Of a stretch of 64,000 bases of DNA, positions 8,734 to 61,678 are shown one piece after another; the first letter of the stretch is position 1, and every line of letters begins with the position of its first letter. The translations under genes and the position numbers were made by a program. The notes beneath the pieces are model-generated. The model saw only the letters and a program-made list of their open reading frames with translations, searched no databases and was not told where the DNA came from. Source of the DNA: Sphaerodactylus townsendi (lineage: Eukaryota); NCBI RefSeq assembly GCF_021028975.2, contig NC_059426.1:155434001-155498000 (forward strand), in the 5' to 3' direction.

Positions 8734-8874
8734 GGCTCATTCCGCACAAGCAGAATAATGCACTTTCAAACTGCTTTCAGTGCTCTTTGAAGCTGTGCAG
8801 AATGGCAAAATCCACTTGCAAACAGTTGTGAAAGTGGTTTGAAAACACATTATTTTGCGTGTGCGGAAGGGGCC
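8734..8874. mobile_element. PIF/Harbinger-like MITE, subfamily A (141 bp)
   Basis: Ends GGCTCATTCCGCAC / GTGCGGAAGGGGCC; 3-bp TSD TGT. Confidence 0.85.
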
Positions 8875-11200
8875 TGTGTTTCAGTGGTTTTGCTTCATTA
8901 GCCATATGCCGCCTCAAGCAGGTCTCTGGAAAAGTGACATATGTTGTTCACCGCCCGGAGCCCTTCGGGGATCGGGCGGTATAGAAATTGAAGATATAAA
9001 TAAATAAATAAAAATATACATTTTCCTAATAAATAAAGTAAACATTTTTTGCAGTATTTGGTAATTGGCATGCAATGGTATTAAGTATTTGATTGTACTG
9101 AGACCTCCCATGCAATAGCACAGCACAGGCATTGTATGAACTTCCTATCTTTAGGGAAACTAAATGCTGTCAAGGAGCCTCTTTGTATTTGACACCCAAA
9201 ATGCCCACAACTGCACACTGCAGAAGATTCTGGGATATGTTCCAGGATGTATATCCAACTAACAAAGGACATTGCGTGGCCTCCTCTCTACCTTCTGATA
9301 ACTGGAAGGGAGCAGACTTTCATGTTTACTTCCATAATTCTTTTCCCTTTTAAAAAAAAATATCATGCAGCCACAGGGTGAGATGCAGTTTTATGGCAAA
9401 GATCGGAATGGAGGAAGAGAAGCTATTTAATTCCTTGCTCTGATGCCATTTTTCTCCCAAAAAGCACCATTCTCCCAAATGCCTGTGTTACGGAATGATG
9501 TGGAAACAAGTTTTAAAATCTATACAGAGCAATAGCAGCCTGGTAGGGTGGCAATTTGTGGTTGAAAAACCACACAAAGGGAAAGATTTAAATAGCTCAT
9601 TCCCTGTTATGTTGTTCTCCCCCTATAGACTGCAGCCCCTATAGCTTGCGTTTTTTTAAAAAAAAAAGAAGGGGAAATTATTATGGAATTATACTCACTG
9701 AATATTCCACTGTGGCTATAATTGCGCAGAAAGATCAATGGTGGGGGACAGGCAAACTTCAAGCTGTCCTTTTCATTAAAAAAAACTCTGATAAGCTTCC
9801 AAAGCAAAAACCCTCAGAGTTTTCAAAAAGATCTTTGGAAAACCACCCATATATCGTATTTGACAACATCAGGTGCTAATTACTTTAACAGTTGCCACTT
9901 AAGCTGAAACTGTGGCACAAAAAGGAAGCCAAATTTATACAAGTAACAGTTGTCTTGTCTGCAACTGTGTCTTGCATCTTTTAGTTTTAAATGGGTATTC
10001 TGGGAATACTTTTCTAAAATTGCAGTCTTATAAGAGCATAATGTAAGTGAGCAAGGCCCATTTAATGTATATCTTTTAGAAGACTGAGATGGTTTGGATG
10101 CACCATATTCAATGCATTGATTGTACTATTAAACATTATTTGTATAACTGTTGCCTTTACATGTCACTTGTCTGCATAATGTAAATTTGCATAAGCCTTT
10201 ATATAAAATATTCTGAACCCCTAATTTGAGGTTACAGATTATAAATATTTATTTTAAGTGACCTTTAAGATGTTTATATTCCTAATCTTATGGAAAATTG
10301 TATTTCCATCTTTGAGGTAACGGGTGACTAATAAAAAGCTGGGCAACCCCAAGGACTGAATTAAAATGCTGTTTCCTATTTAAATTATTTTGTTTCTCAA
10401 GGTAATATAGTGGAAGGACTGAATGTAGAAAAATGGTGTGAATCATGCATTGCATTGTGCATTCACTTTCATTGGGACTTGAAGGCACAGGCATATCTCG
10501 GGAAAATGTAGCCTGGTGCAAAATCTGAGTCCCCGCACCCCGGTGGGGCCACCGTCCCCCACCACGACCAAACAATTTTTTTTGCACCAGATCTTGAAGT
10601 CAGTGTATAGCACCTGGGGGGGGGGGAGGATGAGGGGTGTGGAGGCAATATTCCCCCACACATGACTAAATGACTGCAGCCTGGGGATATTTAACCCCAT
10701 ATGTCCCCCTGGGTGGTACACCCCTGCTTGAAGGCACAGCCTGCTACTTGTAAGAATATATCCAGACACATGTCGCAAAGGTGAGTTGCCACTAGCATGA
10801 GGTTTTCTTTGCTTCACCTGCAGATAAATGTTCTCTACTTGAATAAGTGCATTAATCTCCTTTAGAAAGCGGTTGCAGGTTGCACTCGTACTTTAAAACA
10901 TTTCAGCAATGCTAAATTCCCCCAAAGCCAGGTAATAATACTTTTTATCAGGATCGACCAAAATAACACAAACCAGTGTACACTCTTTTGAGTTCTCCTG
11001 AATTTTTCATCAGCTGAATGGGCTTTTTCAAAACTTGTGTTTTAATACTGTAGTTTTCAATTGCAAGCTGCCTCCAGCAGAACTCTAAAGAGATGGCACA
11101 AAAATATCCTATGATAAAACAGGGGGCACTGTGAAAGACTATGCTTAAAGTTTAAGGGTTCTTGTAATAGTATCCAGTTTGGATTCCATGGACTCTTAAT

Positions 11201-11361
11201 CAGAGACATAGCTCCAAGGGGGCAGGGGACGCAATGCACTTGGTGCACGCCCCTGTGGGGGTGTGGCGAGGGCATTCCAGGGGCGTGGGGGGGTTCCGGG
11301 TGGGATGGGGGCAGAGGACACACCAGTGCACAGGGAGCTTTTTCCCCTTGCTATGCCTCTG
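11201..11361. mobile_element. hAT MITE
   Basis: CAGAGACATAGC / GCTATGCCTCTG ends; 8-bp TSD CTCTTAAT. Related partial copies near 7200-7425 and 43860-43982. Confidence 0.85.
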
Positions 11362-11671
11362 CTCTTAATTAATGTCCAGTATTGTAAATTATTATGACCA
11401 CAAGTTCCCTCTGTCCTCAGCCTTTTAAGGGACCCACATGTTCCATTATATGCTAGAGAGATATCTGATCAACTGCTGGCTTTTGCATTTCAGGTGGCTC
11501 TTGTTTGCTGTTGATGTTTGTTTTGTTCCCTCTTCCCAGAAGGCCGTGAAGGCAATGGAGATCAGAGCCATTTCAAATCTACATACCTGCTCATTGTTCC
11601 AAGAAAGATTCTTAAGATTGTGACCTGCAGCTTCACCCTCCATCCCCTCTTTTTAAAAACATCCAGTCATA

Positions 11672-11812
11672 GGCCCCTTCCGCATACGCAAAATAATGCA
11701 TTTTCAAACCACTTTCACAACTGTTTGCAAGTGGACTTTGCTATTCCGCACAGCTTCAAAGAGCACTGAAAGCAGTTTGAAAGTGCATTATTCTGCATGT
11801 GCGGAATGAGCC
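11672..11812. mobile_element. Harbinger-like MITE A at the 3' tail of a CR1 LINE
   Basis: Same 141-bp element reversed; TSD ATA. Confidence 0.85.
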
Positions 11813-12405
11813 ATAGAATCATAGAATTGGAAGAGACCACAAGGGCCATCAAGCCCAACCCCCTGCCATGCAGGAACACACAATCAAAGCACTCCTGACA
11901 GATGGCCTCTCTTTAAAACCTCCAAAGAAGGAGACTCCACCACCCTCCAAGGCAGTGAATTCCACTGTCAAACAGCCCTGACAGGCAGAAAGTTCTTCCC
12001 CAGCTCCCTAAGTCTGTAAGGCATGAATTCCAGACCTTGTACCATTTTGGTTGCCCTCCTCTGTACCTGTTCCAGCTTGTCAATATCCTTGTTGAATTGC
12101 AGTGCCCAGAACTGAACAGAGTACTCAAGGTGAGGTCTGACCAATGCCGAGTAGAGTGGTACAATTACTTCCCTCAATCTAGACACTATACTCTGATTAG
12201 TGCATCCCAGAATTGCATTGATTTTCTTGGCTGCCACATCACATGGCTAGCTCATGTTCAGTTTGTGGTCTCCCTATCACATGTGATGTTGTCAAGCCAG
12301 GTATCACCTATCCTATATCTGTGCAATTCATTTTTTTTTCTCCTTAAATGTAGATTCTTACTTTTATCTCTGTCGAAATTCATTTTGTTAGTTTTGGCCC
12401 AGTCA
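11813..12405 (-). mobile_element. CR1 LINE 3' fragment
   Basis: [36 protein letters not shown]; (ATTCTATG)n 3' tail. A tail-only copy lies near 784-862. Confidence 0.92.
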
Positions 12406-13499
12406 GATGAACAGAAGAAGTCAACAACTTATACAGTTTTGGTCCACAAAACAAAAATGACTCTACAGCTTTCCTTTCTGGATTTTTCCAGAACAGAGGT
12501 CAGGGGCAAATGCATAGTGAAAAAGTGACTGAAGATGTACCACTGATGTGTGAAAATGCCTGGCTACTTCCAGGTTCTCCTGGTATTGTCCTTGCTGCTA
12601 ACGCCCAGTGTATTGTGAGATCTACAGTTGCACACCTCACTGGGGACAAAGGTCAAACAAAGTTTGGGCTCTAATCTACACGGAATTTGTGAAGGGAAGT
12701 GCTTTAGGCTGCTTTTTTGTGTCTGGAGAAAACAGATTTACAACAAGAAAGGAAGGAAACTTAGACAAAAATCAAATAAACCATTAGGAAAAATAAGTTC
12801 GATTTGCTAGTGAATGGCAGTTTCCCTCTTCCCTGGAGTTGCCAACAACCTGGTCAAAAATGTCATGTCCCTTTAAGAGAAGCTTAATGTGCAGAAATGG
12901 TCAGCAGAAGTTTTTTCGTGGTAGGGACCTCAGTAACACCCCCTTTAAAAAACACATCTTTTCTCTTAAAGGGATAGGACACTTTTTTTTCTCCAGGCCT
13001 GTTGGTAACAGTACTGTCACCCAATTTGAGACTTTTAAACTTTTGTTTTCCAAAGCCTGGGCAAGACACTCTGCTCACCAACAAGACTCGTGGGCAGGCA
13101 TGTGAAGCTTCCCCCAATTTTTCCCCACTGCAGAGGGACCAGGATTGCTACGGTGTGCTGGGACGAAGCTGAGATCAGCACCACTCCCCAGCCTCGTCTT
13201 TTTAATTCATATGTTATCACCATCTTTCTAAACACTTTATCACACTGGTAATTCGGTTTGGTCACAACAAACTCATGGACAACAATGGATCAAATGAGCC
13301 CTGGCGGATTTCTGCATGGGGTCCTAAAGCGAGTCTCACCTCCCACGCCTCACGGCCATCCATTTATACTCCAGATCTGTGGAAGGCATGGGGTGGGGGG
13401 TGCTTGGATCCTCACCTTTAATAACAGGGAGGAAGAAGGGAGGTGCATTCAACCCAAATGAATGGCACTTGCATTCAAGTAATGTAGTTTTGACGTTAA

Positions 13500-13640
13500 G
13501 GCTCATTCCGCACATGCAGAATAATGCACTTTCAAACTGCTTTCAGTGCTCTTTGAAGCTGTGCGGAATAGCAAAATCCACTTGCAAACAGTTGTGAAAG
13601 TGGTTTGAAAATGCATTATTTTGCGTGTGCGGAAGGGGCC
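13500..13640. mobile_element. Harbinger-like MITE A
   Basis: 141 bp, nearly identical to the 55237 copy; flanks TAA/TGA. Confidence 0.85.
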
Positions 13641-14300
13641 TGAGTGTAAACATTGCTGCTTCACTTAAGAATCGAGACCGTTTTTGATGTAGCGTAGAAA
13701 TTCAGACTCAGTGGAATCTGGAAAACAGGACTGGAGGGAGGTCAGCAGGTTGGTTGAGGGATTATTCCAGCTCAGCATAAATAAACTTCTGGATATAGTC
13801 CTCTCAAGCCTAAAGCCCCAGACCGCCATCTCTCTTTCTTCATGTCCCAAATGATCCGACCAAACTTTTACTTTTCCAATTCGGATTAACTTGGAGCGCC
13901 AAACATGCCTTCCGGGTTCATTCTTATCCCGTGTCACTAGTGCTTAACACAAAATCCTACACTGAACAAGTGTCCACATATCCAGGCATAGACCCTCATA
14001 GTGATTTCCCATGGCCTGCTTCTGAATAGCTACTTTTAATTTCTTTAGTGGGTCCCATGTCTAAAGACTAACCGGAGGCAACCCTGCTTAGCTAACGGAT
14101 CAAGCTAGCCTAGCTTTCAATCATCCTTAATCAGTTCTCAAAGCCAAAATATAAAGACAGAAGATATTCAGAAGTTGTAATCCATTTACACATTTGTCAG
14201 ATAACACATCCCCCCCCCCAAAAAAAAGTCCCAGTTCCATCCAGTACACCAAATTATGTTTCCAATATATCTCTGGGGGAAAGATGTGGATTCTTGCTAA

Positions 14301-14420
14301 GGCCCTTTTGGCACATGCAGAATCATGGCCTTTCAATCCACTTTCACGCTTGTTTGCAAGTGGATTTTATTCCGCACAGCTGCAAAGTGCATTGAAAGTG
14401 GGTTGCGTGCGGAAGGAGCC
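14301..14420. mobile_element. Harbinger-like MITE B (internally deleted)
   Basis: GGCCCTTTTGGCAC...GTGCGGAAGGAGCC; TSD TAA. Confidence 0.8.
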
Positions 14421-14438
14421 TAAGATTTGTTTAGCAAT

Positions 14439-14589
14439 GGCCCCTTCCACACATGCAGCATAATGCACTTTCAATCCACTTTCAATGCACTTTGCAGCTG
14501 GATTTTACTGTGCGAAATAGCAAAATCTACTTGCAAACAATTGTAAAAGTGGATTGAAAGTGCATTAGTCTACATGTGCAGAAGGGGCC
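14439..14589. mobile_element. Harbinger-like MITE B (151 bp)
   Basis: Long imperfect TIRs GGCCCCTTCC.CACATGCAG.ATAATGCACTTTCAATCCAC; TSD AAT. Confidence 0.85.
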
Positions 14590-14914
14590 AATATTGTGCA
14601 AAACTGTGGGGGAAAGTGTGTTCAGAAACTTCCACTTTCCATACGACCCTCCGAGTACTTTTTTAAAAAGTAGCAACTGCGCTGTTCCATTGACACGGGG
14701 TTGTCACAGTAAACATGTCCCATAACGGATGCAAAAAAAGATGCTTTTTAAAACTTTGTTTAGGAGTTTTGTCTTCTCACATCAAATATCCTTCTACATT
14801 CTCACAGCAGGCTCCCAGAATTGTTGATCTTGATGGCAGGGCAACTAGAATTAATCTGGAGCCTTCTGGGTTGTATCAGCCATTTGGGGCTAAGATCCTA
14901 AACTTACTTTCCCT

Positions 14915-15065
14915 GGCCCCTTCCACGCATGGAGAATAATGCACTTTCAATCCAGTTTCACAATTGTTTGCAAGTGGATTTGGCTATTCCGCACAGTAAA
15001 ATCCAGCTGCAACGTGCATTGAAAGTGGATTGAAAGTGCCTTATTCTGCATGTGTGAAAGGGGCT
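14915..15065. mobile_element. Harbinger-like MITE B (151 bp)
   Basis: TSD CCT; opposite orientation to the 14439 copy. Confidence 0.85.
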
Positions 15066-15646
15066 CCTTGGAAGTAACTTCCACGTCACTCAGTAAGATT
15101 TGCCGCTGAGTAAGGAAACTGACTTTGGAAAGTCAGAGACCTCCCAGCCATTAGCAAACGCCAAGTCCAAGAGAAGAACCCCATAGGGGCTTTGCCTGCA
15201 GACGGATGGCCACTAACATGGCGCAGCTGTGCTAGTGAGGTTGCAGACCTGGGAACAAACTCCATGCAAAACAATGAGACTGACTTAAGAGTGTGCATGC
15301 TTAGACTCCCACAACTGCAAACAACTGATTTTTTTTAAAGTCCCTTTTCTCTGGCCCTCTGCAAAGCCTACGCTTCCTGGTGTGAGGCTCAAGGTTAATA
15401 AGCAATGACAATTGCAGAATTAAAATCCCCATTTCTGCAGCCTTCCCCCTCCCCCCCTTCTTTGTACTGAACCGGCCAGAGGCTGCGCAGGCCCCTCCTC
15501 GCCAAGCCTAGACTAAACAAAGGCGTGTTTGGCCCCGGTCTGCCGCGTTTGTGTTGTCTCCTTGGGATCTGGCGCTCAGGGACACCCAAACAAAACACAA
15601 CCCGGGCCAGCGTCCACCTGTGCAACACCTCCGCAAAAGCCACGCT

Positions 15647-15652
15647 TTTATT
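15647..15652 (-). terminator. Candidate GSC polyadenylation signal AATAAA
   Basis: TTTATT on + strand about 180 nt past the stop; GT-rich sequence follows on the minus strand (GGTGTTG..., GGGTTGTGTTTTGTTTGG). Confidence 0.7.
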
Positions 15653-15832
15653 TCAGCGGGATCTCCCTCCTCGGGTCGAGCGCACTATATACAAACGAGA
15701 GACCGTCCCCCTTCCCCGCCGCCGCCGCCGCCTCCTCCTCCTGCAAACGCAGAGTCTGTGCAAGAATCGCGACCATCTTCCCCGGGCAAGTCGCAGCAGA
15801 CAAGACAGTCCGTCCCGCGGCCGCCGTCCGCA

Positions 15833-15985
15833 TCAGCTGTCCGAGTCCACGTCGCTTTTGTGGTCTTCTTGCCTCTTCTCCGGAGAGGTTTTGGACGCTT
15901 TAGTCCACTTCTGGGCGTTTTCGGACTCCTCCGACGAAGACCGCTTTTGCCGCCTCCATTTGGCCCGGCGGTTCTTGAACCAAAC
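15833..15985 (-). CDS. GSC: GSC coding exon 3 (recognition helix and C-terminus)
   Basis: Acceptor GACAG|GTT at 15986/15985; hand translation [50 protein letters not shown] then TGA at 15835-15833 (this frame is not in the ORF track). Confidence 0.97.
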   Translation of the reverse strand, partial: VWFKNRRAKWRRQKRSSSEESENAQKWTKASKTSPEKRQEDHKSDVDSDS

Positions 15986-18900
15986 CTGTCACCCAAATGA
16001 ATTGGAGATTATCAGTTGCAATGGTTGCAATGGAGCGTGCGATAGTCAATAAGCGGCCCGCGTCAGCTTAGGAGTCCCCGCCATCCAGTGGTCTCAAGAG
16101 CAGCGCGCTTCCAAAGACCGGGTTTGCACGCTCAGCTTCAAAGCCCGGGACCCTGAACACGTGAAATCTATGCACGCAGACTTGAATGGGCCACCCCTTA
16201 CACGTGCGCTGAGAAGGCGTCTGGATCCTGAACACGGAGCTTGCGGCTAAGAGCGCCGTCCTCCTGCTTGCCGCTAGCATGCGCAGAATTTAGGATCGGG
16301 TACCCACACCACCGTCCTGCGCACAAAGGGAATTCTGTACTTCCAAGTTAAGGGGGATCTGGGGCCCTATACTTGGAGCGCTGCTAGTGGGATTTGCAGT
16401 TATTTCCGCTCCAGGTGGGAAGAATGTGTGTCACATTGGGTAGCCATGCAATGGACCTGACGAAGGCCCCTTCCGCACATGCAGAATAATGCACGTTCAA
16501 TCCACTTCCAATGCACTTTGCAGCAGTGTGGAATAGCAAAATCCACAAACAATTGTGAAAGCGGATTGAAAGCACATTATTCTGCATGTGCCGAAGGGGC
16601 CAAAAACTGCAAGATCTGCGTGAAATGATGAAAATCGCTTGATCTGAATGCTACCACTACGACTTTTAGAGCCAACTCTAAGCCATGAGTCCTGCAAAGT
16701 ACAGAAGTAATAGCGGTTTTTTAAAAGAGAACTTAACAACACAGTCTTAAGGAGAATTACATGCAGATTGAAATGAAGGGGTTAGACGATAGCAGTTCTC
16801 TTTAGGATGGCACTGTTAGTCTGCAGAAGTTTTCCAGGAATCAGTAATATCACCTGCCTCATCCTAAACCTCTTGCGCAGCATCCTAAATTGACCAGGTG
16901 CTTCAAAACCACAGTAAAAACCCAGCTCATCCTAAATCTCTTGCGCTGCATCCTAAATTGAGCAGGTCCTCTAAAAAACAGAAGGGTGGAGCTGTCCAGC
17001 TCTGCCTGTCTTGCCTAGCAGAGGTGCCTACTAGGAATATACAGGCTGTAGTCACAACAGGGATCTTTTGGCTTTCTCTCCAGTTGCAGACGAAACTGCT
17101 TCCATTAAATGCTTCCATTAAATGCAAGGATCGCCGACTGCGGTTCCGCGCAGTGCCAACCACGCTGCGTAAATGGTGAGCAGCCACTGTAGCCATGGGC
17201 TGGGTCGCCTCAGTCCCAGCGGACTTCACAGCGAATTTGCCTTCGCATGCACACTCCACTTCAAACCCCAGCTATTCTGTCTACAGGAAGTTCCGACACT
17301 CTTCGAGAAATCAAATGCGTCTTTACGGGAAAATTTAGCTGCAGTTCGCCGGACCAACCAACATCCCACTGAACTCCTGAGACTCACTTCCAGGTGAATT
17401 GACACTGGGCAGAATTAAATAAGTCCTGAACAGTTTGCACCCAAGCAAACTCCGATTCTACTGGGGATCCACAGGATCAGAGCTGCAATCCACAAACAAG
17501 CTACCCGGGCACCTCCAGTAGAAACCATTTAACACTACTGACCAATGCGCAGTAGCAGCCGCTCTTGAGGGACACTTTCATTTAAATCTGTTTTGTGGAA
17601 CCTGGGAGGGCTGAATTGAAAGGTTGTCATTACTAAAGATAATAACCTGTAGCGGCTACAGGTGCTGCTGCCGCCGCTATTACCACCGGTGTAACTTCTT
17701 GCGCCAAGGAAACGCGGGGCGCTGCGCGTTAAAACTCAACTTTGTTGGAAGGCAAACCGTCCTTCCTACACCAAAGCCCAAACACATGCAGAATAATGCA
17801 CTTTCCACTTTCACAATTGATTGCAAGTGCATTTTGCTATTCCGCACAGTAAAATTGAGCTGCAAAGTGCATTGAAAGTGGACCGAAAGTGCATGGTTCT
17901 GCACGTGCGGAAGGGGCCAAAGTTGTTGCACAGTCCCCATGCCCCCAGTGCCTTGCGCTCATAATCCACGATCCTTTCCACCCTTCAGCCCAAAAGAAGC
18001 GAGCCCCTTACCTCCACTTTCTCCTCCCGCAAATGCACCCTCCTCGCCAGCTGTTCCCTTGTCCCCACATCTGGGTATTTGGTTTCCTGGAAGAGGTTCT
18101 CCAGAGCCTCCAGTTGCTCGTCCGTGAAGATGGTCCGGTGTCTCCGTTTCCTCCGGCAGTGGAGCTGATTCAGCAGCTGCAGTTCCGTCCGGGACAAGGT
18201 GCCCACGTTCATGTAGGGCAACATCTGGTGGGGCACGGGAGACATGAGGACAGAGCCGGTACCTTCATAGCCTAGTGAGACAGGAGGCAAACGCAGATGG
18301 CCCGGGTTTTGCATGGGGTTCACGATGCAGGAACGATGATCCCGCCACAAAAAACCCAAAATCTGTGAACACACCTGCCAGCTACAGCAAAGGAGGAGGC
18401 GAAGTTGACACAATTACCGTGTTTCCCCAAAAATAAGACAGTGTCTTATATTATTTTTTGCTCGCCAAGATGCGCTATGTCTTCTTTTTAGGGGATGTCT
18501 TATTTTTCTGTGTTCTGTTCGTCGGGCATGCTTCCCAACAAAAACTTTGCTACGTCTTACTTTCGGGGGATGCCTGATATTTTGCACTTCAGAAAAAACT
18601 CTACCACGTCTTATTTTCAGGAAATGTCTTATATTCGGGGAAACAGGTTGACAACTTTGGAATTTTGGAGTTGGGATCGGGGTCCCCTCCACCAGACGCC
18701 GGTGGGATTGAGAACACGCCAGTGAAGTATGCAGGTTGTGGGGATGCACTGTGATGCGAGAGCGGCTCTCTTAGCCCCTTCCGCACATGCAGAATAATGC
18801 ACTTTCAATCCACTTCCAATCCACTTTGAAACTGGATTTTACTGTGTGGAATAGCAAAATCCACTTTCAAACAATTATGAAAGTGAATTGGAAGTGCATT

Positions 18901-21025
18901 ATTCTGCATGTGCAGAAGGGGCCTTTATCCAGTAGCCTCGGAGTAATTTCAGTTTCTCTTCCCCCCCCCCCTCCCACAACATCTCAGTTAGTTTAATTAA
19001 GCTTTACTTGTAGTTGAGCACAACTGTATCATCCTGAAAGGTTAATCTAATTGATAAAATGGAGGATATTTACAGGTTAAGGCGCTAAAAGGCTTAACCT
19101 CTAAAACTATAATCTGGAAAACAGCTTCGAAAACGTTTTTAAAAAGGTCCGATCCGCAGCAGTGTTGACCTAAATTGCAGAGACGCGTAGTGTATAGGTC
19201 TGAAACTACTGGAATGAACTAAAAACATGGATTAAACTGCAACTCCGAGAAACATACACTTGGAAGAAACGTGGAATTCGATTTTGTTTTCTTCTAGGGC
19301 CTCCTTGTCTTCCACGGGGCCGGTGGCTCGGCCCTAACGCATCTACACGTAAACAAACCCTGCAGGCTTTAAGTGGCATCAAGGAGCTTTAGGATCAGAA
19401 AGATCCGGTGCAGTTTAAATCGGCTTCATCTCTGATGTTTAACTGGGTTAAATTTGTAATCAGTTTGCAAATCTAGACTAGCCAACTGCCACTTTTTTGC
19501 GCCTTATTTGGGACGGGTGGGAATTTTACACCTGGATTTTAAATCCGGAAAGCGTGTTTTTGCTTGAGTCAGGAAGTTTTTGTAGGAATCCAAAATAAAG
19601 TACTGTATAATTGAATGCTCAGACTAAACTGGGAGAAGACGCACAAACTCAGAAATCTCCATAGGCTGGCTTTTAAAATACTTCTGCATCTGAATGCTAA
19701 GCCTCCTTACTCTTTGCTTACTCAGAAGTAAGTCCCACTGATTATAACGGGTAGGTGCCTTTGGAACGACCGTTTGACTTGTAAATCAACCTAGTTATTC
19801 TCACTAAACTCAGGCGCGCAAACAATTTTACGCATGGTCCCAGACAATTTAGACGGGGCAACCGCGTGTGGGAAGCATTCGAGCAAACGCGTGACTGAGT
19901 AAAATCTCCCTGCTTTGCTAAGGAGGCCCCTTCCGCACATGTGGAATAATGCACTTTCAATCCACTTTCAATGCACTTTGCAGCTAGATTTTACTGTGCA
20001 GAACAGCAAAATCTACTTGCAAACAATTGTGAAAGTGGATTAAAAGTGGATTATTCTGCATGTGTGGAAGGGGCCACGCCACGGTGTCAAAAGGCTCTGC
20101 TTTTATGGATGACAAGGGGAAGTTGAGAGAACGCAGGCTCCGAAATCCATACCCACCACCGAGTCCTCTGCACATTAACTTGGGCTGTAAATCATAGGGG
20201 AGGTTCACTTCTAGCTGATGGGATGGGATCCCACGCCAGCGGGCCAGCTCGCCATTCGCAGTTATCTTCCCCCCTCCTCCGTCACTTGGGTAGGGGGGTT
20301 AAGGGCCACGATTGGGGCTCTTCGGAAGGGCTTGAGGTTCCTTGAGGGGCGAACAAAGCCGTGCGCTTGAGATCTCGCCACTGTTCAAGGCAGGATCGAC
20401 CTTCCTCCGCGCTGGTGCTGAGCCCCCGCAATCTCTCCCTGCACGGATGCTCCGTTGGTCACTCTGGTGCAGGGGTGTCCACCTCTGGTCCTCCAGATGT
20501 TCATGGACTGGCAGGGGCTGATGGGAAGCGTAGTCCGTGGACCAGAGTTGGATACCCCTGCCGGGAGTTCAGGGCGGGGGAGACGAGGAGTCACCCGGAT
20601 GCCACCCTGGATCCCACCTCCCCAAATAGTCCCCCTCCCAATAGCAACGTCGGTCGCCGTCGCCGAGACTCACCTGTGGTGGGGACGCAGGAGCACTGCT
20701 GAGCGCCTAGGGGAGGCACGGCGCTGCAGCAAGAGGGGCCGACGGCGGACGCCTGGACCTGCAGCTGCCCGTAGTAGTAGTTGCCGTAGCCTCCCAGCCT
20801 GGAGCCGCCGAGCGCGGGCAGGCCGGACGCCGGAGCCACCGCCCGCGAGTAGTATCCGCCGTAGTCGGCGCCGGCCGAGGCGTAAAGCGAGTCCCCCCCG
20901 TGGAGGCTGGCCGAGAAGACGACGGGCGCGGTGCTGGGGGGCTGCAGCACCGCCGAGGAGGGGGCCTCCTTGCAGCGCGGGCGGGCCGCCAGGATACTGT
21001 CGATGCTGAACATGCCGGCAGGCAT
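15833..21025 (-). CDS. GSC: Homeobox protein goosecoid, spliced CDS join(21025-20674,18271-18012,15985-15833), 765 nt, 254 aa
   Basis: Three exons with canonical GT-AG junctions join in frame (352+260+153 nt). N-terminus [12 protein letters not shown] (eh1), homeodomain [58 protein letters not shown] (K50), C-terminus KSDVDSDS*, all typical of Gsc rather than Gsc2. Confidence 0.98.
16465..16601. mobile_element. Harbinger-like MITE B in GSC intron 2
   Basis: Same TIRs, small internal deletions; flanks GAA/AAA. Confidence 0.85.
17776..17918. mobile_element. Harbinger-like MITE B in GSC intron 2, 93 nt from the exon 2 donor
   Basis: Left end degenerate, right end GTGCGGAAGGGGCC; core reversed relative to the 18773 copy. 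Confidence 0.8.
18012..18271 (-). CDS. GSC: GSC coding exon 2 (homeodomain up to the start of helix 3)
   Basis: Acceptor CTCACTAG|GC at 18272/18271; [49 protein letters not shown]...REEKVE; donor GAG|GTAAGG at 18012/18011. Confidence 0.98.
18417..18647. mobile_element. Tc1/mariner-like (Tc2-type) MITE in GSC intron 1
   Basis: TA|CCGTGTTTCCCCAAAAATAAGAC ... GTCTTATATTCGGGGAAACAGG; repeated GTCTTATTTT motifs. Confidence 0.75.
18773..18923. mobile_element. Harbinger-like MITE B in GSC intron 1
   Basis: 151 bp, TIRs nearly intact. Confidence 0.85.
19925..20075. mobile_element. Harbinger-like MITE B in GSC intron 1
   Basis: 151 bp, TIRs nearly intact; no clean TSD. Confidence 0.85.
20470..20560. 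mobile_element. Deleted hAT MITE in GSC intron 1, related to 50295
   Basis: CAGGGGTGTCC...GGATACCCCTG; shares CTCCAGATGTTCA and AGGGGCTGATGGGAA with the 50295 copy. Confidence 0.7.
20674..21025 (-). CDS. GSC: GSC coding exon 1 (eh1/Groucho-binding motif, GY-rich region)
   Basis: ATG at 21025 inside ORF 20591..21199; [19 protein letters not shown]...QQCSCVPTT; donor CAG|GTGAGT at 20674/20673, phase 1. Confidence 0.97.
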
Positions 21026-21315
21026 CCCCCACCGGACGGAGGCGCCGCCGAGCAGGAGCAGGAATCGCGGGCGCGGGCAGGCAGCGCCCAGCCAAGCGGA
21101 CCGCGCTGCGCCCCGCCGGCCAGCCTCGCTGCGCCGGACTCGGGGGCGAAAGGGACCCGCCAAAGTCCTTCCCCAAACTTTACCCCCCCCCCCCCGCAAA
21201 CCCTTCCTGGGACTCTGGCCTCCGAGCCCCCGCCCTTCCCTCGCCTACTCTCGCCCGGCTCCTCCTCGGATCGCCACTGCGCCGAGTCTATAATCCATCC
21301 CAAACCTCTTTCCGT

Positions 21316-21362
21316 TTTTATACCCGGGCGACGTCATCCCGGAACGAGTTGCTGGTTATATA
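21316..21362 (-). promoter_or_regulatory. GSC core promoter: two TATA candidates (TATATAA 21362-21356; TATAAAA 21322-21316) with a near-CRE TGACGTCG between them
   Basis: Motifs read directly, about 300 bp upstream of the ATG and downstream of the proximal element. Confidence 0.65.
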
Positions 21363-21503
21363 TCAGATCGCAAATAAAACCAGATTTCACTCTCCTTTTT
21401 TTTTTGAAGGGGGGTTTGAGAGGAGATGAGGGGGCGGGGCAGGAGGAGCAGAAGGGGGTGGGGCTGCAGGGGATGGGATGGAAGGGGGGGGGGCGGACCG
21501 GTT

Positions 21504-21550
21504 TCTGTGTATTGAGAATTAACCAAATTAAGGTAATCCTCTCCATTAGC
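21504..21550 (-). promoter_or_regulatory. GSC proximal element (PE): homeodomain sites plus FoxH1 site
   Basis: Minus strand CTAATGGAGAGGATTACCTTAATTTGGTTAATTCTCAATACACA resembles the Xenopus/mouse gsc PE as I recall it; FoxH1 consensus AATACACA 21513-21506; K50-type TAATCC 21534-21539. Confidence 0.8.
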
Positions 21551-21631
21551 GGCAATTCTCTCGCCCTCGGATGCGTCCCCCTCGACGTGCCCCCCCCCCC
21601 CGCCGTAATCTCTCCCTGCTCGCTGCTTTTG

Positions 21632-21662
21632 CTAATTGTTTCCCGGGTTAATCCGGTTAATA
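21632..21662 (-). promoter_or_regulatory. GSC distal element (DE, Nodal/activin-responsive, paired-homeodomain site)
   Basis: Minus strand TATTAACCGGATTAACCCGGGAAACAATTAG resembles the Xenopus DE (TAATCAGATTAAC...CAATTAG, recalled) and lies upstream of the PE as expected. Confidence 0.72.
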
Positions 21663-23619
21663 ACATTGCGGGGAACCGGCTTAACGCCCCCGGACTTTGT
21701 CTCCGCTGATTGGGTGCCATTTCCTCTGCCCCCTGCTAACATCGCTCCCCCCCTCCGGATCCCTCCAGCACGCACCGATGTAGGAGGAATAATCCGCGGG
21801 CTTTACCTGCCGAGTAAATGAGTTGAGAGTTTAGGATCAAGGTGTTAGATTCCTGATTCCTGATAGGAATTAGGCGAAGAGGACTTTAGATGTGGATTTT
21901 AAATCCGAGATGCTTACAGCAGAGCCCTCCGCGTGTTTGTGGGGGTGGGGGTGGGGGTGGGGGTGGGGGGCGAAGTCTACCTCTCACCCACCTGGTTAAT
22001 TACTGCGCTGTGTATTGCTGCGTCCGAGCGTGTCTGTGTGTAATTTACACGCATCGATACTTAAGTGTGTGAGTGTTTCGAATCTGATTCCTGATACTTT
22101 ACCAGAGTTGCCTTTCAGCGAACCCGGAGTTCCCAACACATTTATTGGGGGAAACGTCCCGTGGATTTTCGGTGGAACTTTCTTGTCAAGCAAAAAGCCT
22201 AGAGAACCCAATTTGCACTTCGGATCTATTGACCTCCAGAAGAGATGTACTGCTTCACAGTTCGGTTTCACTATTTCTAAACTGAAATAAACTTTTAACA
22301 AAAATCACAAAATTGCTGATCTTTAGGGTTCCTCTCAGTGGGGAATACATTCCAGTTAACTCTCAAACTCTTTCTTTTTGGAAATTAGAAACCCACAACA
22401 ATCCGGTCCCGATCCGGCTAAAGCTGATTTTGAAAAAAAAAAAAGGTGCACTTTTAAGAAAGCTTTCCTAGGAGTAAATCTCGCGGAATAATCCCGAGAA
22501 AGGTTCTGAACAGGATGACTCTGTTGAGCCCCAATGATTGCGACTGGGCGGGTTTAAACCTGTGGTTTAAGGCACTATGAAACCAGCCTTCCGCTTAACT
22601 TGTTTTGCGGACTACTGCGCACGGTCTTTCGGACAGCATTTCGGATCGAGTCATCCTATAACAGGTCGCCCGCTCTGAATTAATTCCCATGCTATCCAGT
22701 AAGGGATTCCTCGTAAGAAAGGGTCGTTTAGGACGGCAGCCCTCTTAACTTCGACGCAGGCGGGAAGAAACAATCGGACAAGATTTTAAAGCGGATTAAA
22801 AACCCACGGAAGGCGGGCGGGGAGTAAGAGCTGCGAGTTTGCACCCTGAAAACGCACCTCTTGGGGCGTCTGCTCCGAACTTTGGTTTCTGAAGAAGGAA
22901 AACTTTGGAAGAAATTAAATTCGTTTTCCTGTTCAGATTTGCGAGCCGGGGCTCTCCCCCCTCGTATAGCTGAACATTTTGCAAGCTTGCGGGGAGGCGA
23001 AGTTTCTTAAAACATTTCTGTTTATTAAGACCGGCGTCTCTCCTGGTAGCCGCGCCTGGTGATTTGCAGCAGCCTCCGTCCGTCACGACCGTCTCTCGGA
23101 ATCCGCAGGAGGTGAAGTGAATCAGATTAGAATATTTATCCCATCAGTTTTCCCTCAAATAAGGCCGGAAATTGTAGGCAAGCGAAGAAAATAAGCTATT
23201 AGGAGGCGATTGAGGAGGCACCTCGTTATATTGTCTTTTCTTTCTGAGGCCTGCAAAAAAAAAATGTATATTTTAGCGCAGGTAGCTTTCTCTGCTCCAC
23301 ATACACACACAGATCCGGACTGATCTCAAAACGCAATACCAGAAGAAAACCTAATAGCCATTCATCCCCCCCCCCTGCCCCCCCATCCTAGTTTACATTT
23401 CAGTGGAAGGCCGAAACCACTTTTGCTTCAAAACGGCCGGAGAAAGCAATCTCCGTGGACTTTCATTGGGAGAAAGGGCAGAGGTGTCTTAATTGTAAGC
23501 TCCTCGCGAGCAAGGACCTTCTCTTTAGGAGCAGGCAACTGAAAAGAAAACAGTCAAATTATTCAAGACAACGGAACGGGTTTTAAACACTGAGATGAAT
23601 TGTAGATGTGTTTCCGCAC

Positions 23620-23783
23620 TCCTACATTCCTGCTGGGTGACCTTGGGCTAGTCACAGTTCTTCGGCGCTCTCTCAGCCCCACCTACCTCCCATGGTGTCT
23701 ATTGTGGGGAGAAGGAAGGAAAGGAGCTTGCAAGTTTCCTTACAAGAGAGAAAGGTGGGATATAAATCCAAACTCTTCTTCTC
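23620..23783 (+). mobile_element. Same SINE family, 3' half (another 3' fragment near 1515-1622)
   Basis: GCTGGGTGACCTTGGGCTAGTCACAG...GATATAAATCCAAACTCTTCTT. Confidence 0.8.
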
Positions 23784-23811
23784 TTAATAGAGAGCAGTAT
23801 CTGGTGTTTGT

Positions 23812-23952
23812 GGCTCCTTTCGCACATGCAGAATAACGGAGTTTCAATCCACTTTCATAATTGTTTGCAAGCGGATTTGGCTATTCTGCACAGCTGCAAA
23901 GTGCATTGAAAGTGAATTGAAGGTGCATTGTTTTGCATGTGTGAAAGGGACC
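23812..23952. mobile_element. Harbinger-like MITE B upstream of GSC
   Basis: Diverged TIRs; TSD TGT. Confidence 0.8.
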
Positions 23953-26900
23953 TGTGTGTGCCTTGCCAGTTTCTGTATCAGTCAAACACTGCCCCAATTT
24001 CCTCCACTCCCCATTTGCTTCCGTGCCCCTCTACCACGGCATCGACTATTTTGAACCGTTGTAGCGCAACCCTATGCGGAGTTATTCCATTCTAAGGGTA
24101 ACTCCGACGTAATTCTCCCCACGACTGTGCTGCCAGCGTCCGAACCATTCCGTGCGAAGTTTTATCGGGGGCTGAATCCATTGCAAACGGGTGGACAGAT
24201 GCCGAAGCAGCTGGCCTGGCACCCACCCCTTCCCCTTCGCAATGTCAGGTAGCAGAACCAGATTCTTGTCCACTGCCTGCGGTGGCTCCAACGCAAGCCG
24301 GTCGCGGCCACTGCAACACGAAACCCCTTTACCTACTGCGCGCTTTGCCGCCCGCCGGTTCGCCGGTTCGCCATCCCGCACCCCCACCCCCCATTAGATT
24401 GAACAGATCTTTGCATACATAGCCTATAAAGCGGGAGTCCGAGATCCCCTTCCAAATAAGAATAGCAACATGGAACAAAGTGGGTCCTTTGACATTGCTG
24501 CAAGGCTGAAGGGATCGGTGGCAGAGACTGTCGGCCAGCAAAAGGTAAGAACAGCAAACTGCAAGGTAAAGAGGAGGAATCTGCAAGGCTTCCTAGAAGC
24601 TCGGTAGGCAACGGTTTCGCCACGACTTCGGGTCGGTCCCCGCGACTGCTTGAGCCTGCTCAATTTCACCGACGGGGCCCGGAGGTTGGCCTCCCCTAGA
24701 GCAGATCCCCAGATCAGAATTCCGCGAAGGTTAAGTTTATAGGATGGGAAAGGGATCATTCTTGGGAAAGGCAGAATTATTCGGACACCCGACCATTCCT
24801 CCCAGGTAAGGGGAACTTGATCCAGATGTCCTTCCAGGGGTACTTGAGCCAGACTAAAACCTGGTCTATCCTTACTGACTGGAGATGGTCCAGAGATCCA
24901 CTAATCAATGGATCTCTGGACCCGCTCTCTTCAAAGGCGCTGTCCGATTTTAGGTAACTTGGGGGGAGTCCTTCCGGTTGTAATTCTTGCAAGGTCACTC
25001 ATCGATCCTGAACTGTTTTAAACTTTAAATGCACTTAATTGAGAGTGGACCTCGTGAAACTCAAGCAGAGTTACATAGGCTCGGACTCTATAATAAAACC
25101 TGTCTGGTTCCTTGGCGACGGTTTCTTCCAAGTAAACAGGCGAGGAACGGGGCGGCAAACTGGACTCCGGCGCAGTGCAATCCTAAACAGAGCCACCGTT
25201 TATAAAACCGTTGGTTTAAATGGCTTTAAAACAGGGCTACTCTGCTTTAGGACTGCCCTGACAGTTCACTTTTTCCCCCCAAGTGCGCCCCGTTTACTGC
25301 AATCCCATGCAGTTTAGTTCCGTCCACACTCACTGATTTCAACAGATTAAGAGAAAATAAATTAGTTTGGGAGTGCAGCATCAGATTCCATAGACACTCG
25401 CGCGACATTATTGTTTTCGAATAAATTATTATTTTTTATTATTATTATTTTATTAGACTTATAGGCCGCCTTATCCCCGGAGGGCTCAATTGCGACCACT
25501 TTAGCTGAGTCGACAGATCGAACGATCTGCAATCGGTCCTCCTCACCCCCTTCCTGGGAAATAGAACCCGAATTACGATTTTAGATCTCGAATGCCCAAA
25601 TCGTGATCAATGCACATTCGTTATGATTGTTGTCGAAGTTTTGAAGTTCCTTGCCCAGAGCCACCGGGTTAACTTTTCGCGCTCATCTTGCGCGCCCTAA
25701 GGCAGGTACGGCGGACAACGCACCTCCTGCCCTGGAAGCCTGCGAAGTTTTTTTAGTGGATGCACGCTCGGCGCTCTTACTCCGGATCATGGTCGAATTT
25801 TTTTTCGTCCACCCTTCCCCCCCCTCCCCCGAATTGGGTGACCTTCTGCGAGCCAGTCTTCCTTCTGGTCCGCCTCCACCCTCCCGCGCCGAACTTCTCC
25901 ATTAAACAAACCACCCCTTGTGTCCCTCATTGGAAGAGGTCGGCATTGGCATAACAAATGAAAGCGAGGCAAATGGCGCGCCGCCGGCTTGTTGCTAAGG
26001 GCTCGTTTGTTGCCAGAGGCCAGGCACAGCGTGGGCCGGGAGCCGCCCGGCCAGAGGGAGATGAGGCCGGCCTGCACGGAGCGCTTAGACCAGGCCTCGA
26101 GTAAACACGAGGCTGATTTTCGACATCGCGACCCGGACACGGTTTCCCGCGAAGCACATCGCACGGGGCAGAAGCCCGTGGAAATGGGCTCGGTGTAGAG
26201 AGAAAGACGGAATAAAAACCTCATTTGGGCGATATTCTAAAGAGGAGGCCAGCTGATTGCAAAGAGAGACCGAAACGCCCCAAGCGGGCACTTTTATGTC
26301 AAGGGGAAATGGCTGCCTCAAAAACAATAATAACAAGATGTTGTCGTCTCCTTCCCAAATGTGCCTCCTCACTTCACCTTAATCCAATTCCACCCTCCAC
26401 CTTTCTGCCCAGAGAGGTCTGCAAATGTAAGGGGCATGGCCGAGGCCCTTTTGGTTCCAGAGAAAAGACTACCCCAAAAACAAAAAAATACAAGATTTTG
26501 TTGTCTCCTTTTGTTTGGCTCCTCACTTCACCCAATTCCTCCTTTGGTCTTTCTGCCCAGAGGTCTGCAATGCACTATAGGAGGGATCCCAAATAGTAGG
26601 TCCAAGCTGAGGCTCGACTGGGAAGGCCTCTCATCTTTCAATTGCTTGCCCGGCTGGGAAAAGCAGGCAGATGGCTCTTCCCTGGCCCCAGAAAAGGGAT
26701 GGTGCTGCTTTAGGCCTACCTACCGGGTTTAGCTGGTGTCAAAGTTTTGGCCGCGTCAAAGTGTGCATTTTTCCTACTTCCCAAACATGGAAAATAAGTG
26801 TTGTTCATCTTTAAGGTGCCCTGCATTTGGGGTTTATTTTGCTACCCCAAACTAATATGGTTTCCCTTCGGCACTTATGTGAAAGCAGCTGCATTTGTCT

Positions 26901-39349: not shown

Positions 39350-39834
39350 GGCCCCTTCCGCATGGGCGGAATATGGAGCCCTGCGGATGGCAAAAACGCC
39401 GTCCCCAGGGAGCCATTTGCACAGGGGGCGCAGCTACTTCGCAGCCGCGCCGCCCTCGCTCCGCCCGACCGGTGCGAAGCTGCCGTTTTCCGACCTCGCT
39501 TGGGAAGCGAGGTTTTTGGAAAACGGCGGCTTGGAGCCGCTGCCGTGCGAATGGCAGCAGCTCCAAGGCGCCCTCCCTCCCCCCTCTTCACGTACCGTGT
39601 CTGTGGCTGTCCGGCGCGTCGCTGAGGTCTGGGGACACGCCCCCCTGCCCTGCGACGCTGGAGCAGTTGCGCAGGGTAGGGGGGCATGTCCCCAGACCTC
39701 AGCGATGTGCCGGACGGCCACAGACACGGCAGGTCGGCCGGGGGCGACGGCGCTCCACGGCGCCGGTCCCAGGGGGGTTGGGTCGGCGTGGAATATGCCG
39801 ACCCAAGCCCGATCGTCGCTGTGCAGAAATGGCC
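39350..39834. mobile_element. GC/CpG-rich non-autonomous Harbinger-like element
   Basis: Ends GGCCCCTTCCGCA / TGCAGAAATGGCC; TSD TCA; long internal inverted repeat about 39595-39730. Confidence 0.8.
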
Positions 39835-40471: not shown

Positions 40472-40601
40472 GGCTCATTCCGCACACGCAAAATAATGCA
40501 CTTTCAAGCTGCTTTCACAACTGTTTTTGCCATTCCGCACAGCTTCAAAGAGCCCTGAAAGCAGCTTGAAAGTGCATTATTCTGCGTGTGCGGAATGAGC
40601 C
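40472..40601. mobile_element. Harbinger-like MITE A variant (130 bp)
   Basis: Both ends GGCTCATTCCGCACACGCA; TSD TAA. Confidence 0.88.
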
Positions 40602-50294: not shown

Positions 50295-50442
50295 CAGGGG
50301 TAGGGAACCTGCGGTTCTCCAGATGTTCAGGAACTATAATTCCCATCAGCCTCTGTCAGCATGGCCAATTGACCATGCTGGTAGGGGCTGATGGGAATTG
50401 TAGTTCCTGAACATCTGGAGAGCCGCAGGTTCCCTACCCCTG
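50295..50442. mobile_element. hAT (Charlie-type) palindromic MITE
   Basis: Near-perfect palindrome CAGGGGTAGGGAACCTGCGG...CCGCAGGTTCCCTACCCCTG; perfect 8-bp TSD TTCTATAC; sits at a SINE tail. Confidence 0.92.
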
Positions 50443-61227: not shown

Positions 61228-61678
61228 CACCCACCCCATTGGAAACACCTGCAGGGGGTGGGGCCTGGCAGCTACAACAGGAGCTCCACCAGCAGCCCAA
61301 GGCAGCCAGCCTTTCAGCCCTGCCTGGGACAGATCCTCCTGTTGGTCTGCCTGCCTGCCAGCCGAGCGGAAGTCCACCGGGTGAGCTGCCGCCTGCTGCC
61401 ACTGGGAAGGAGTGAGAGTCCTTCCCCACCCACCCCATTGGAAACACCTGCAGGGGGTGGGGCCTGGCAGCTACAACAGGAGTTCCACCAGCAGCCCAAG
61501 GCAGCCAGCCTTTCAGCCCTGCCTGGGACAGATCCTCCTGTTGGTCTGCCTGCCTGCCAGCCGAGCGGAAGTCCACTCTGGGAAGGAGTGAGAGTCCTTC
61601 CCCACCCACCCCATTGGAAGCACCTGCAGGGGGTGGGGCCTGGCAGCTACAACAGGAGCTCCACCAGCAGCCCAAGGC
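61228..61678 (+). repeat. Tandem monomers (199 bp, 176 bp, partial 76 bp) at the LINE 5' end
   Basis: Units start CACCCACCCCATTGGAA at 61228, 61427 and 61603 and are nearly identical. Confidence 0.92.

Follow-up and report, generated by a model that had tools for sequence, protein, structure and literature searches.

Inverted MITE copies around GSC exon 2 in the gecko Sphaerodactylus townsendi, probable passengers at an insertion hot spot

Introduction

Inverted pairs of transposable elements (TEs) lying in the introns on both sides of an exon can change the way that exon is spliced, and the closest described case concerns a transcription factor of the body axis. In hominoids, an inverted AluSx1-AluY pair, identical at 228 of 297 positions, causes in-frame skipping of TBXT exon 6; in mouse Tbxt, skipping was low and the tail unaffected with the AluSx1-AluY pair, and skipping was higher with a perfect 220-bp pair (PMC10901737). 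Inverted Alus are also enriched around human exons that can be skipped, although the energy of folding hardly distinguishes the skipped exons from the constitutive ones (d=-0.12; PMC13019027). A comparable layout is found in a stretch of 64,000 nucleotides (nt) from Sphaerodactylus townsendi (assembly GCF_021028975.2, contig NC_059426.1, positions 155,434,001 to 155,498,000 of the forward strand), hereafter the window, whose own numbering is used throughout: here exon 2 of GSC is bracketed by inverted copies of a miniature inverted-repeat transposable element (MITE).

The four MITE copies found in the GSC introns are probably tolerated passengers at a hot spot of insertion, with at most a low level of exon 2 skipping or circularisation as their effect. 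An earlier note on the window had seen in the bracket a possible source of circular RNA or a possible exon-skipping switch, the latter producing a protein that keeps the eh1 motif only, and had supposed that transposons may tune the dose of an organizer repressor. A regulated switch of this kind is unsupported: the pairing shows no sign of tuning, no protein of the skipped type was found, the exon 2 donor is strong, and the order of folding favours self-hairpins.

Layout of the MITE copies in the GSC introns

GSC lies on the minus strand, with an intron 1 of 2402 nt and an intron 2 of 2026 nt, and codes for a full protein of 254 amino acids (aa); the closest named homolog of its exon 1 is a bird GSC (74% identity), and homeodomain positions 1-44 are encoded in exon 2, as identified by Pfam. 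Copies A and B are located in intron 1 and copies C and D in intron 2 (Table 1), C being reversed relative to A, B and D; by BLAST, C has 86.5% identity with A over 141 nt and 84.9% with B over 139 nt. The earlier note had placed a copy 93 nt past the exon 2 donor, opposite to the intron 1 copies at 18773 and 19925; both coordinates and orientation were found again, and the inverted bracket around exon 2 is real. Contigs from three related organisms run out of unique flank into copies C and B, with a flank divergence of about 3% (17-18 differences in 529-539 nt). Since the contigs of all three enter them from unique flank, the B and C insertions predate the splits of the three organisms; these contigs end within the repeats, hence they give no per-copy divergence, and one set may derive from the assembly's own sample.

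The element is non-coding, near-palindromic and about 151 nt long, and has a younger subfamily of 141 nt. Its terminal inverted repeats are long and begin with GGC, while its flanks prefer C-WNW-G; an exact 3-bp target duplication is present in 20 of the 39 copies with both ends and two of the three bases agree in 9 more, compared with 1 of 39 at a control offset. From the hallmarks of the superfamily, we take it to be a PIF/Harbinger-type (Tourist-like) MITE. The 37 matches in 80 evenly spread 10-kb stretches (800 kb) extrapolate to about 84,000 genome-wide, or 63,000 for matches of at least 110 nt. The genome contains 152 matches to Harbinger transposase domains, and at none of the seven of these loci examined do MITE ends flank a transposase gene; no published name for the family was found among the literature matches, judged by title. 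One variant of the young subfamily, internally deleted and palindromic over its full length, is present at two unlinked sites (40472-40601 in the window and L129:8916) with near-zero tree distance, which suggests a recently mobile sub-variant.

At least four elements make up the mosaic of intron 1, two of them self-folding repeats of families other than that of A and B. The one at 18415-18647, presumably Tc1/mariner-like, is absent from the earlier note and reduces the effective distance between B and the exon 2 acceptor; the one at 20466-20572 is presumably hAT-like. In intron 2, two direct copies of 51 nt (16858-16976) have 88% identity and lie 68 nt apart.

A rare bracket at a site of dense insertion

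In the 80 random stretches, an inverted bracket with an inner span of at most 1 kb was found at 0 of 7549 overlapping pseudo-exon positions, and one with a span of at most 4.4 kb at 16 of 7549; these counts reject the possibility that brackets of this kind arise often by chance across the genome. Around real exons, one bracket of the narrower type (inner span up to 1 kb) was found among 52 other homeobox exons, and none among 40 kinase exons. One homeobox locus, which we take to be SHOX/SHOX2-like, is present twice (L123 and L124; G000:C8, 93.29-93.32 Mb) in inverted orientation, 94% over 10 kb and with shared MITE copies, representing either a recent duplication or an uncollapsed haplotype; the duplicate is included in the 52-exon set and in the random pairs used for folding, and was dropped from the analyses of subfamily density, of splice sites, and of hot spot and target duplication in 171 stretches.

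The 10 kb around GSC contain 8 MITE copies, versus 0.43 on average and never more than 5 in the 171 control stretches (negative-binomial P 1.6e-4, with no correction for the choice of this locus). For two copies in each intron and random orientation, the probability of at least one inverted cross pair is 0.875, so that, with four intronic copies already present, an inverted pair at GSC is likely; neighbouring control copies have no orientation bias, 13 being in the same and 15 in the opposite orientation. The bracket is rare genome-wide, yet expected from the local copy density, and the unusual feature at GSC is the pile-up of copies, not their orientation. Local hopping as the origin of the cluster is unsupported, the GSC copies not being mutual nearest relatives in a poorly resolved tree.

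Seven of the eight copies in the GSC 10 kb belong to the old subfamily, which is twice as dense at homeobox loci (23 copies in 51 stretches, compared with 26 in 120; binomial P=0.012), and MITE count rises with the CpG observed/expected ratio (rho 0.23, P=0.002). Squamate developmental loci are known to admit transposons, and the TE-rich Hox clusters of Anolis show altered expression (PMC6791295). These data could point to a role at the DNA level, in which copies that accumulated where chromatin is open, beside a developmental gene rich in CpG, may add enhancer or silencer activity; however, the per-locus rank test of the old-subfamily enrichment is not significant (P=0.12) and insertion bias alone accounts for the enrichment, and we regard such a role as improbable.

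Predicted pairing across exon 2 and self-folding

Self-folding of every copy had been named in the earlier note as a competing process, and the predicted self-hairpins are strong, with -91.0 kcal/mol for A, -100.2 for B, -59.6 for C and -85.8 for D. Its proposal that about 140 nt could pair across exon 2 agrees with the prediction of 131 inter-copy pairs in both A:C and B:C, and the copy at 16465, D, is a competitor within intron 2, with 119 pairs in C:D. The free energy of the duplex minus that of the summed hairpins (ddG) is -66.4 kcal/mol for A:C, -47.7 for B:C and -49.5 for C:D, and in the minimum-energy fold of 16400-20150 A is paired with C over 130 bp, spanning exon 2, while B and D are self-folded. 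Near-palindromy could have made orientation irrelevant; this was rejected, as the median gain is 3.9 kcal/mol for same-orientation pairs (n=60) versus 44.1 for inverted pairs (n=120), and the A:B, A:D and B:D pairs gain 0-3.

Order of synthesis leads to a different expectation. A and B are finished about 850 to 2000 nt before C emerges, and since they fold before C exists the self-hairpins would be kinetically favoured. Heuristic refolding barriers amount to 51-65 kcal/mol when starting from two finished hairpins and to 20-27 for a nascent C of 60-75 nt; these values, obtained by Findpath on condensed constructs, are upper bounds and take no account of proteins, helicases included. Folding order and barriers together suggest that the cross-exon duplex would form in a minority of transcripts. 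The earlier note held its proposal to fail if self-hairpins dominate the fold; at equilibrium they do not, the duplex winning in 16400-20150, and the order of folding favours them. Clusters of A-to-G editing, which that note had proposed to look for, would not discriminate duplex from hairpin, because each self-hairpin is itself a long double-stranded RNA (dsRNA). At 34 positions, C is predicted to be free within its own hairpin yet base-paired in both duplexes; examples are the transcript adenosines at 17872, 17868, 17850, 17841, 17828, 17818, 17817 and 17794.

The strength of the pairing can be compared with the background of the family. Among 120 random inverted pairs of the old subfamily, 48 match or exceed B:C, and 5 reach A:C. 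With 41 unrelated partners, C has a median ddG of -54.2 kcal/mol; B is weaker than the typical partner, while A, stronger but within the range, falls between the 5th and the 25th percentile. Similarity of C is 83-85% to its GSC partners, on average 82% to unrelated copies, and 89-93% to its best genome matches. There is no sign of tuning of, or selection on, the pairing of C beyond the family background.

Splice signals and possible skipping of exon 2

The exon 2 donor is strong, scoring higher than all 20 homeobox control donors. The exon 2 acceptor has 14 pyrimidines in 17 positions (10-16 in controls) and outranks 1 of 8 controls, in a very small matrix, while the exon 3 acceptor, with 9 in 17, is lower than all 8. 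The donor and acceptor matrices comprise 20 and 8 sites, respectively, from 51 homeobox loci, the remaining loci having been missed by the pattern.

These signals and the folding bear on a loop-out like that of TBXT, in which A:C or B:C would form often enough to remove exon 2 from 5% or more of transcripts and lower functional GSC in this lineage, the 145-aa product being mostly inert. The equilibrium energies of both pairs and the minimum-energy fold are in line with it, as are the precedents of TBXT and of Alu minigenes and the insertions common to three organisms; moreover, the short downstream intron and a possibly modest acceptor resemble those of Alu-skipped exons (PMC13019027). Nevertheless, the self-hairpins with their barriers, the competition of D for C and the strong donor speak against it, the homology extends over about 140 nt versus about 300 for Alu, and the skip shifts the frame, unlike that of TBXT exon 6; a loop-out of this extent is, in our view, unlikely.

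For back-splicing, inverted repeats of 30-40 nt are enough (PMC4201285), and the pair might be thought to drive an abundant 260-nt circular RNA (circRNA) of exon 2, given the short distance of C from the donor and the pyrimidine-poor acceptor of exon 3, which could slow removal of intron 2. However, circularisation was poor for ZKSCAN1 exons of up to 400 nt, exon 2 being shorter than those for which it went well, whereas 336- and 360-nt exons did circularise, and stability alone did not predict circles (PMC4201285); in rice, MITEs are found on both flanks in just 72 of 2354 circRNAs (PMC4647462). No paper on a GSC circRNA is present among the literature matches listed, judged by title and start of abstract, and abundant circles of this exon are quite improbable.

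The predicted product of exon 2 skipping

Joining of exon 1 to exon 3 gives a protein of 145 aa, with the shifted stop at 15902-15900, in the last exon and 67 nt ahead of the normal stop. According to the usual exon-junction rule, an mRNA with its stop in the last exon escapes nonsense-mediated decay (NMD), and the skipped GSC mRNA would therefore escape it. The frame arithmetic of the earlier note, including the length, the translated tail and the last-exon stop, was re-derived from the sequence; its prediction of NMD escape holds by the position of the shifted stop in exon 3, and retention of the N-terminal motif with loss of the homeodomain follows from the exon boundaries. Pfam gave no match on exon 1, and the motif is presumably of the eh1 type, in agreement with PMC5318956.

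These confirmed features, together with a second homeobox exon of the same layout described below, are what speaks for the fullest form of the earlier note's proposal, a regulated switch in which eh1-only GSC titrates Groucho/TLE and in this way tunes organizer repression. Against it, none of the 23 homologs of exon 1 with a length of 64-205 aa has the skip tail; the majority of them continue into intron 1 and two are odd gene models, and a protein search with the shifted-frame tail returned two candidates and no match; both are weak negatives. In Xenopus, deletion of the homeodomain left Gsc inactive for closure defects, while eh1 was dispensable, in a gain-of-function assay that is not a dominant-negative test (PMC5318956); human GSC disease is recessive (PMC11050951), and the pairing bears no sign of selection. 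A regulated switch of this kind is very improbable.

Expected fate of GSC transcripts

If the copies are tolerated passengers, as we favour, A and B, being transcribed first, would collapse into hairpins of 91-100 kcal/mol; the strong exon 2 donor would emerge 93 nt ahead of C, so that the exon would be defined early, and C would then mainly self-fold or be lost when intron 2 is spliced out. Invasion of A or B by C may happen in a minority of transcripts, generating a duplex of about 131 bp over exon 2 that could yield small amounts of mRNA with exon 1 joined to exon 3, along with a circle of exon 2. The 145-aa product without homeodomain is a probable null, and the consequence would be a slightly lowered dose of GSC, not a regulated switch.

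Several observations weigh against this account. At equilibrium, the cross-exon duplex is predicted to win by 48-66 kcal/mol, and the pair in the minimum-energy fold is A:C, which by calculation outdoes 115 of the 120 random pairs; the barriers are only upper bounds, from models that leave out helicases, and a nascent C of 60-80 nt is predicted to gain 10-25 kcal/mol with B or A. The exon 2 acceptor may be of modest strength, only 1 of 8 controls ranking below it in a very small matrix. The copies are common to three related organisms, and this account does not explain the hot spot at GSC. Finally, an Alu pair of only 77% identity produced skipping in mouse Tbxt (PMC10901737), and Alu deletion lowered skipping in 7 of 8 pre-selected minigene reporters (PMC13019944).

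A similar layout at another homeobox gene and other features of the window

At a second locus, L131:4239-5489 (G000:C7, near 18.93 Mb), a 242-nt frame-shifting homeobox exon lies inside an inverted pair of the same MITE, with a span of 947 nt and a ddG of -62.7 kcal/mol; 5 old-subfamily copies are present in 10 kb. The gene is presumably RAX-like, judged from its homeodomain sequence. This layout keeps alive a bolder proposal, namely that in the gecko lineage old Harbinger-like MITEs accumulated at paired-type homeobox genes and built TBXT-like loop-out switches at GSC and the RAX-like gene, where skipping of the homeodomain exon would lead to NMD-immune proteins with the repression motif only, or to dose cuts, shaping organizer, jaw or eye; but chance at a hot spot fits the layout equally well, and the proposal is very improbable.

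The features of the window are collected in Table 1. On the 3' side of GSC, 14301-15064 contains three MITE copies, of which two, 323 nt apart and with 91% identity over 151 nt, are in inverted orientation and would form long dsRNA if transcription passes the poly(A) signal. Two further palindromes, near perfect at 92% and 86%, and a tandem block with 90% over 275 nt are found at 50295-50442, 39595-39729 and 61228-61678. Rfam gave no match in 13000-24500.

Table 1. Positions of the GSC exons, MITE copies and other repeats in the window
Feature	Position	Strand	Description
MITE copy A	19925-20075	plus	intron 1; of the old subfamily (151 nt); pairs best with C at equilibrium
MITE copy B	18773-18923	plus	intron 1; exon 2 acceptor about 502 nt downstream; self-hairpin the strongest of the four
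MITE copy C	17776-17918	minus	intron 2; 93 nt from exon 2 donor; AAA target duplication intact; weakest self-hairpin
MITE copy D	16465-16601	plus	intron 2; competing partner of C within intron 2
GSC exon 1, coding part	20674-21025	minus	352 nt; phase 1
GSC exon 2	18012-18271	minus	260 nt; frame-shifting on skip; codes for homeodomain positions 1-46
GSC exon 3 to AATAAA signal	15647-15985	minus	normal stop 15835-15833
Second inverted-repeat element	18415-18647	.	intron 1, between B and exon 2; self-fold -59 kcal/mol; very high summed contig depth
Short self-folding repeat, other family	20466-20572	.	intron 1; self-fold -46 kcal/mol; at most 15 overlapping matches in 800 kb of random genome
MITE hot spot	8734-23952	.	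11 of 14 window copies within 15 kb around GSC

Comparison with known systems

If skipping of exon 2 proves true, GSC, a classic gene of the organizer, would offer a parallel to the tail-loss mechanism of TBXT outside primates and with DNA transposons. It would also allow a natural test of the ability of self-palindromic MITEs to loop out exons in spite of the hairpins that they form. If it proves false, the locus would be a well-controlled case of a key developmental gene that tolerates an approximately 20-fold local excess of MITEs, a tolerance that fits the transposon-rich developmental loci of squamates.

The element itself resembles the PIF/Harbinger MITEs in its length of about 150 nt, lack of coding capacity, terminal inverted repeats, 3-bp target duplication and very high copy number, and differs from them in the target duplication, which is WNW instead of the strict TWA. 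With ZKSCAN1/HIPK3 back-splicing (PMC4201285) and the rice MITE circRNAs (PMC4647462), GSC shares complementary arms in both introns, one of them near the donor; unlike those cases, it has a 260-nt exon, a competing partner, D, and self-hairpins. As in the inverted-Alu loop-out, inverted repeats flank the exon within 0.5-5 kb and the downstream intron is short; there, however, the repeats are primate short interspersed elements, whereas at GSC they are palindromic DNA-transposon MITEs, and the Alu effect is statistical, many constitutive exons also carrying such pairs.

With TBXT, GSC has in common an inverted intronic transposon pair, an exon of an organizer or axis transcription factor and an imperfect duplex, here of about 85% over 140 nt. 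In TBXT, skipping is in frame and proven by reverse transcription PCR and deletion; the putative GSC skip would shift the frame and remove the homeodomain, and the arms are half as long, each of them a predicted strong self-hairpin and thereby its own best local partner. In the arrangement of its repeats, GSC is TBXT-like.

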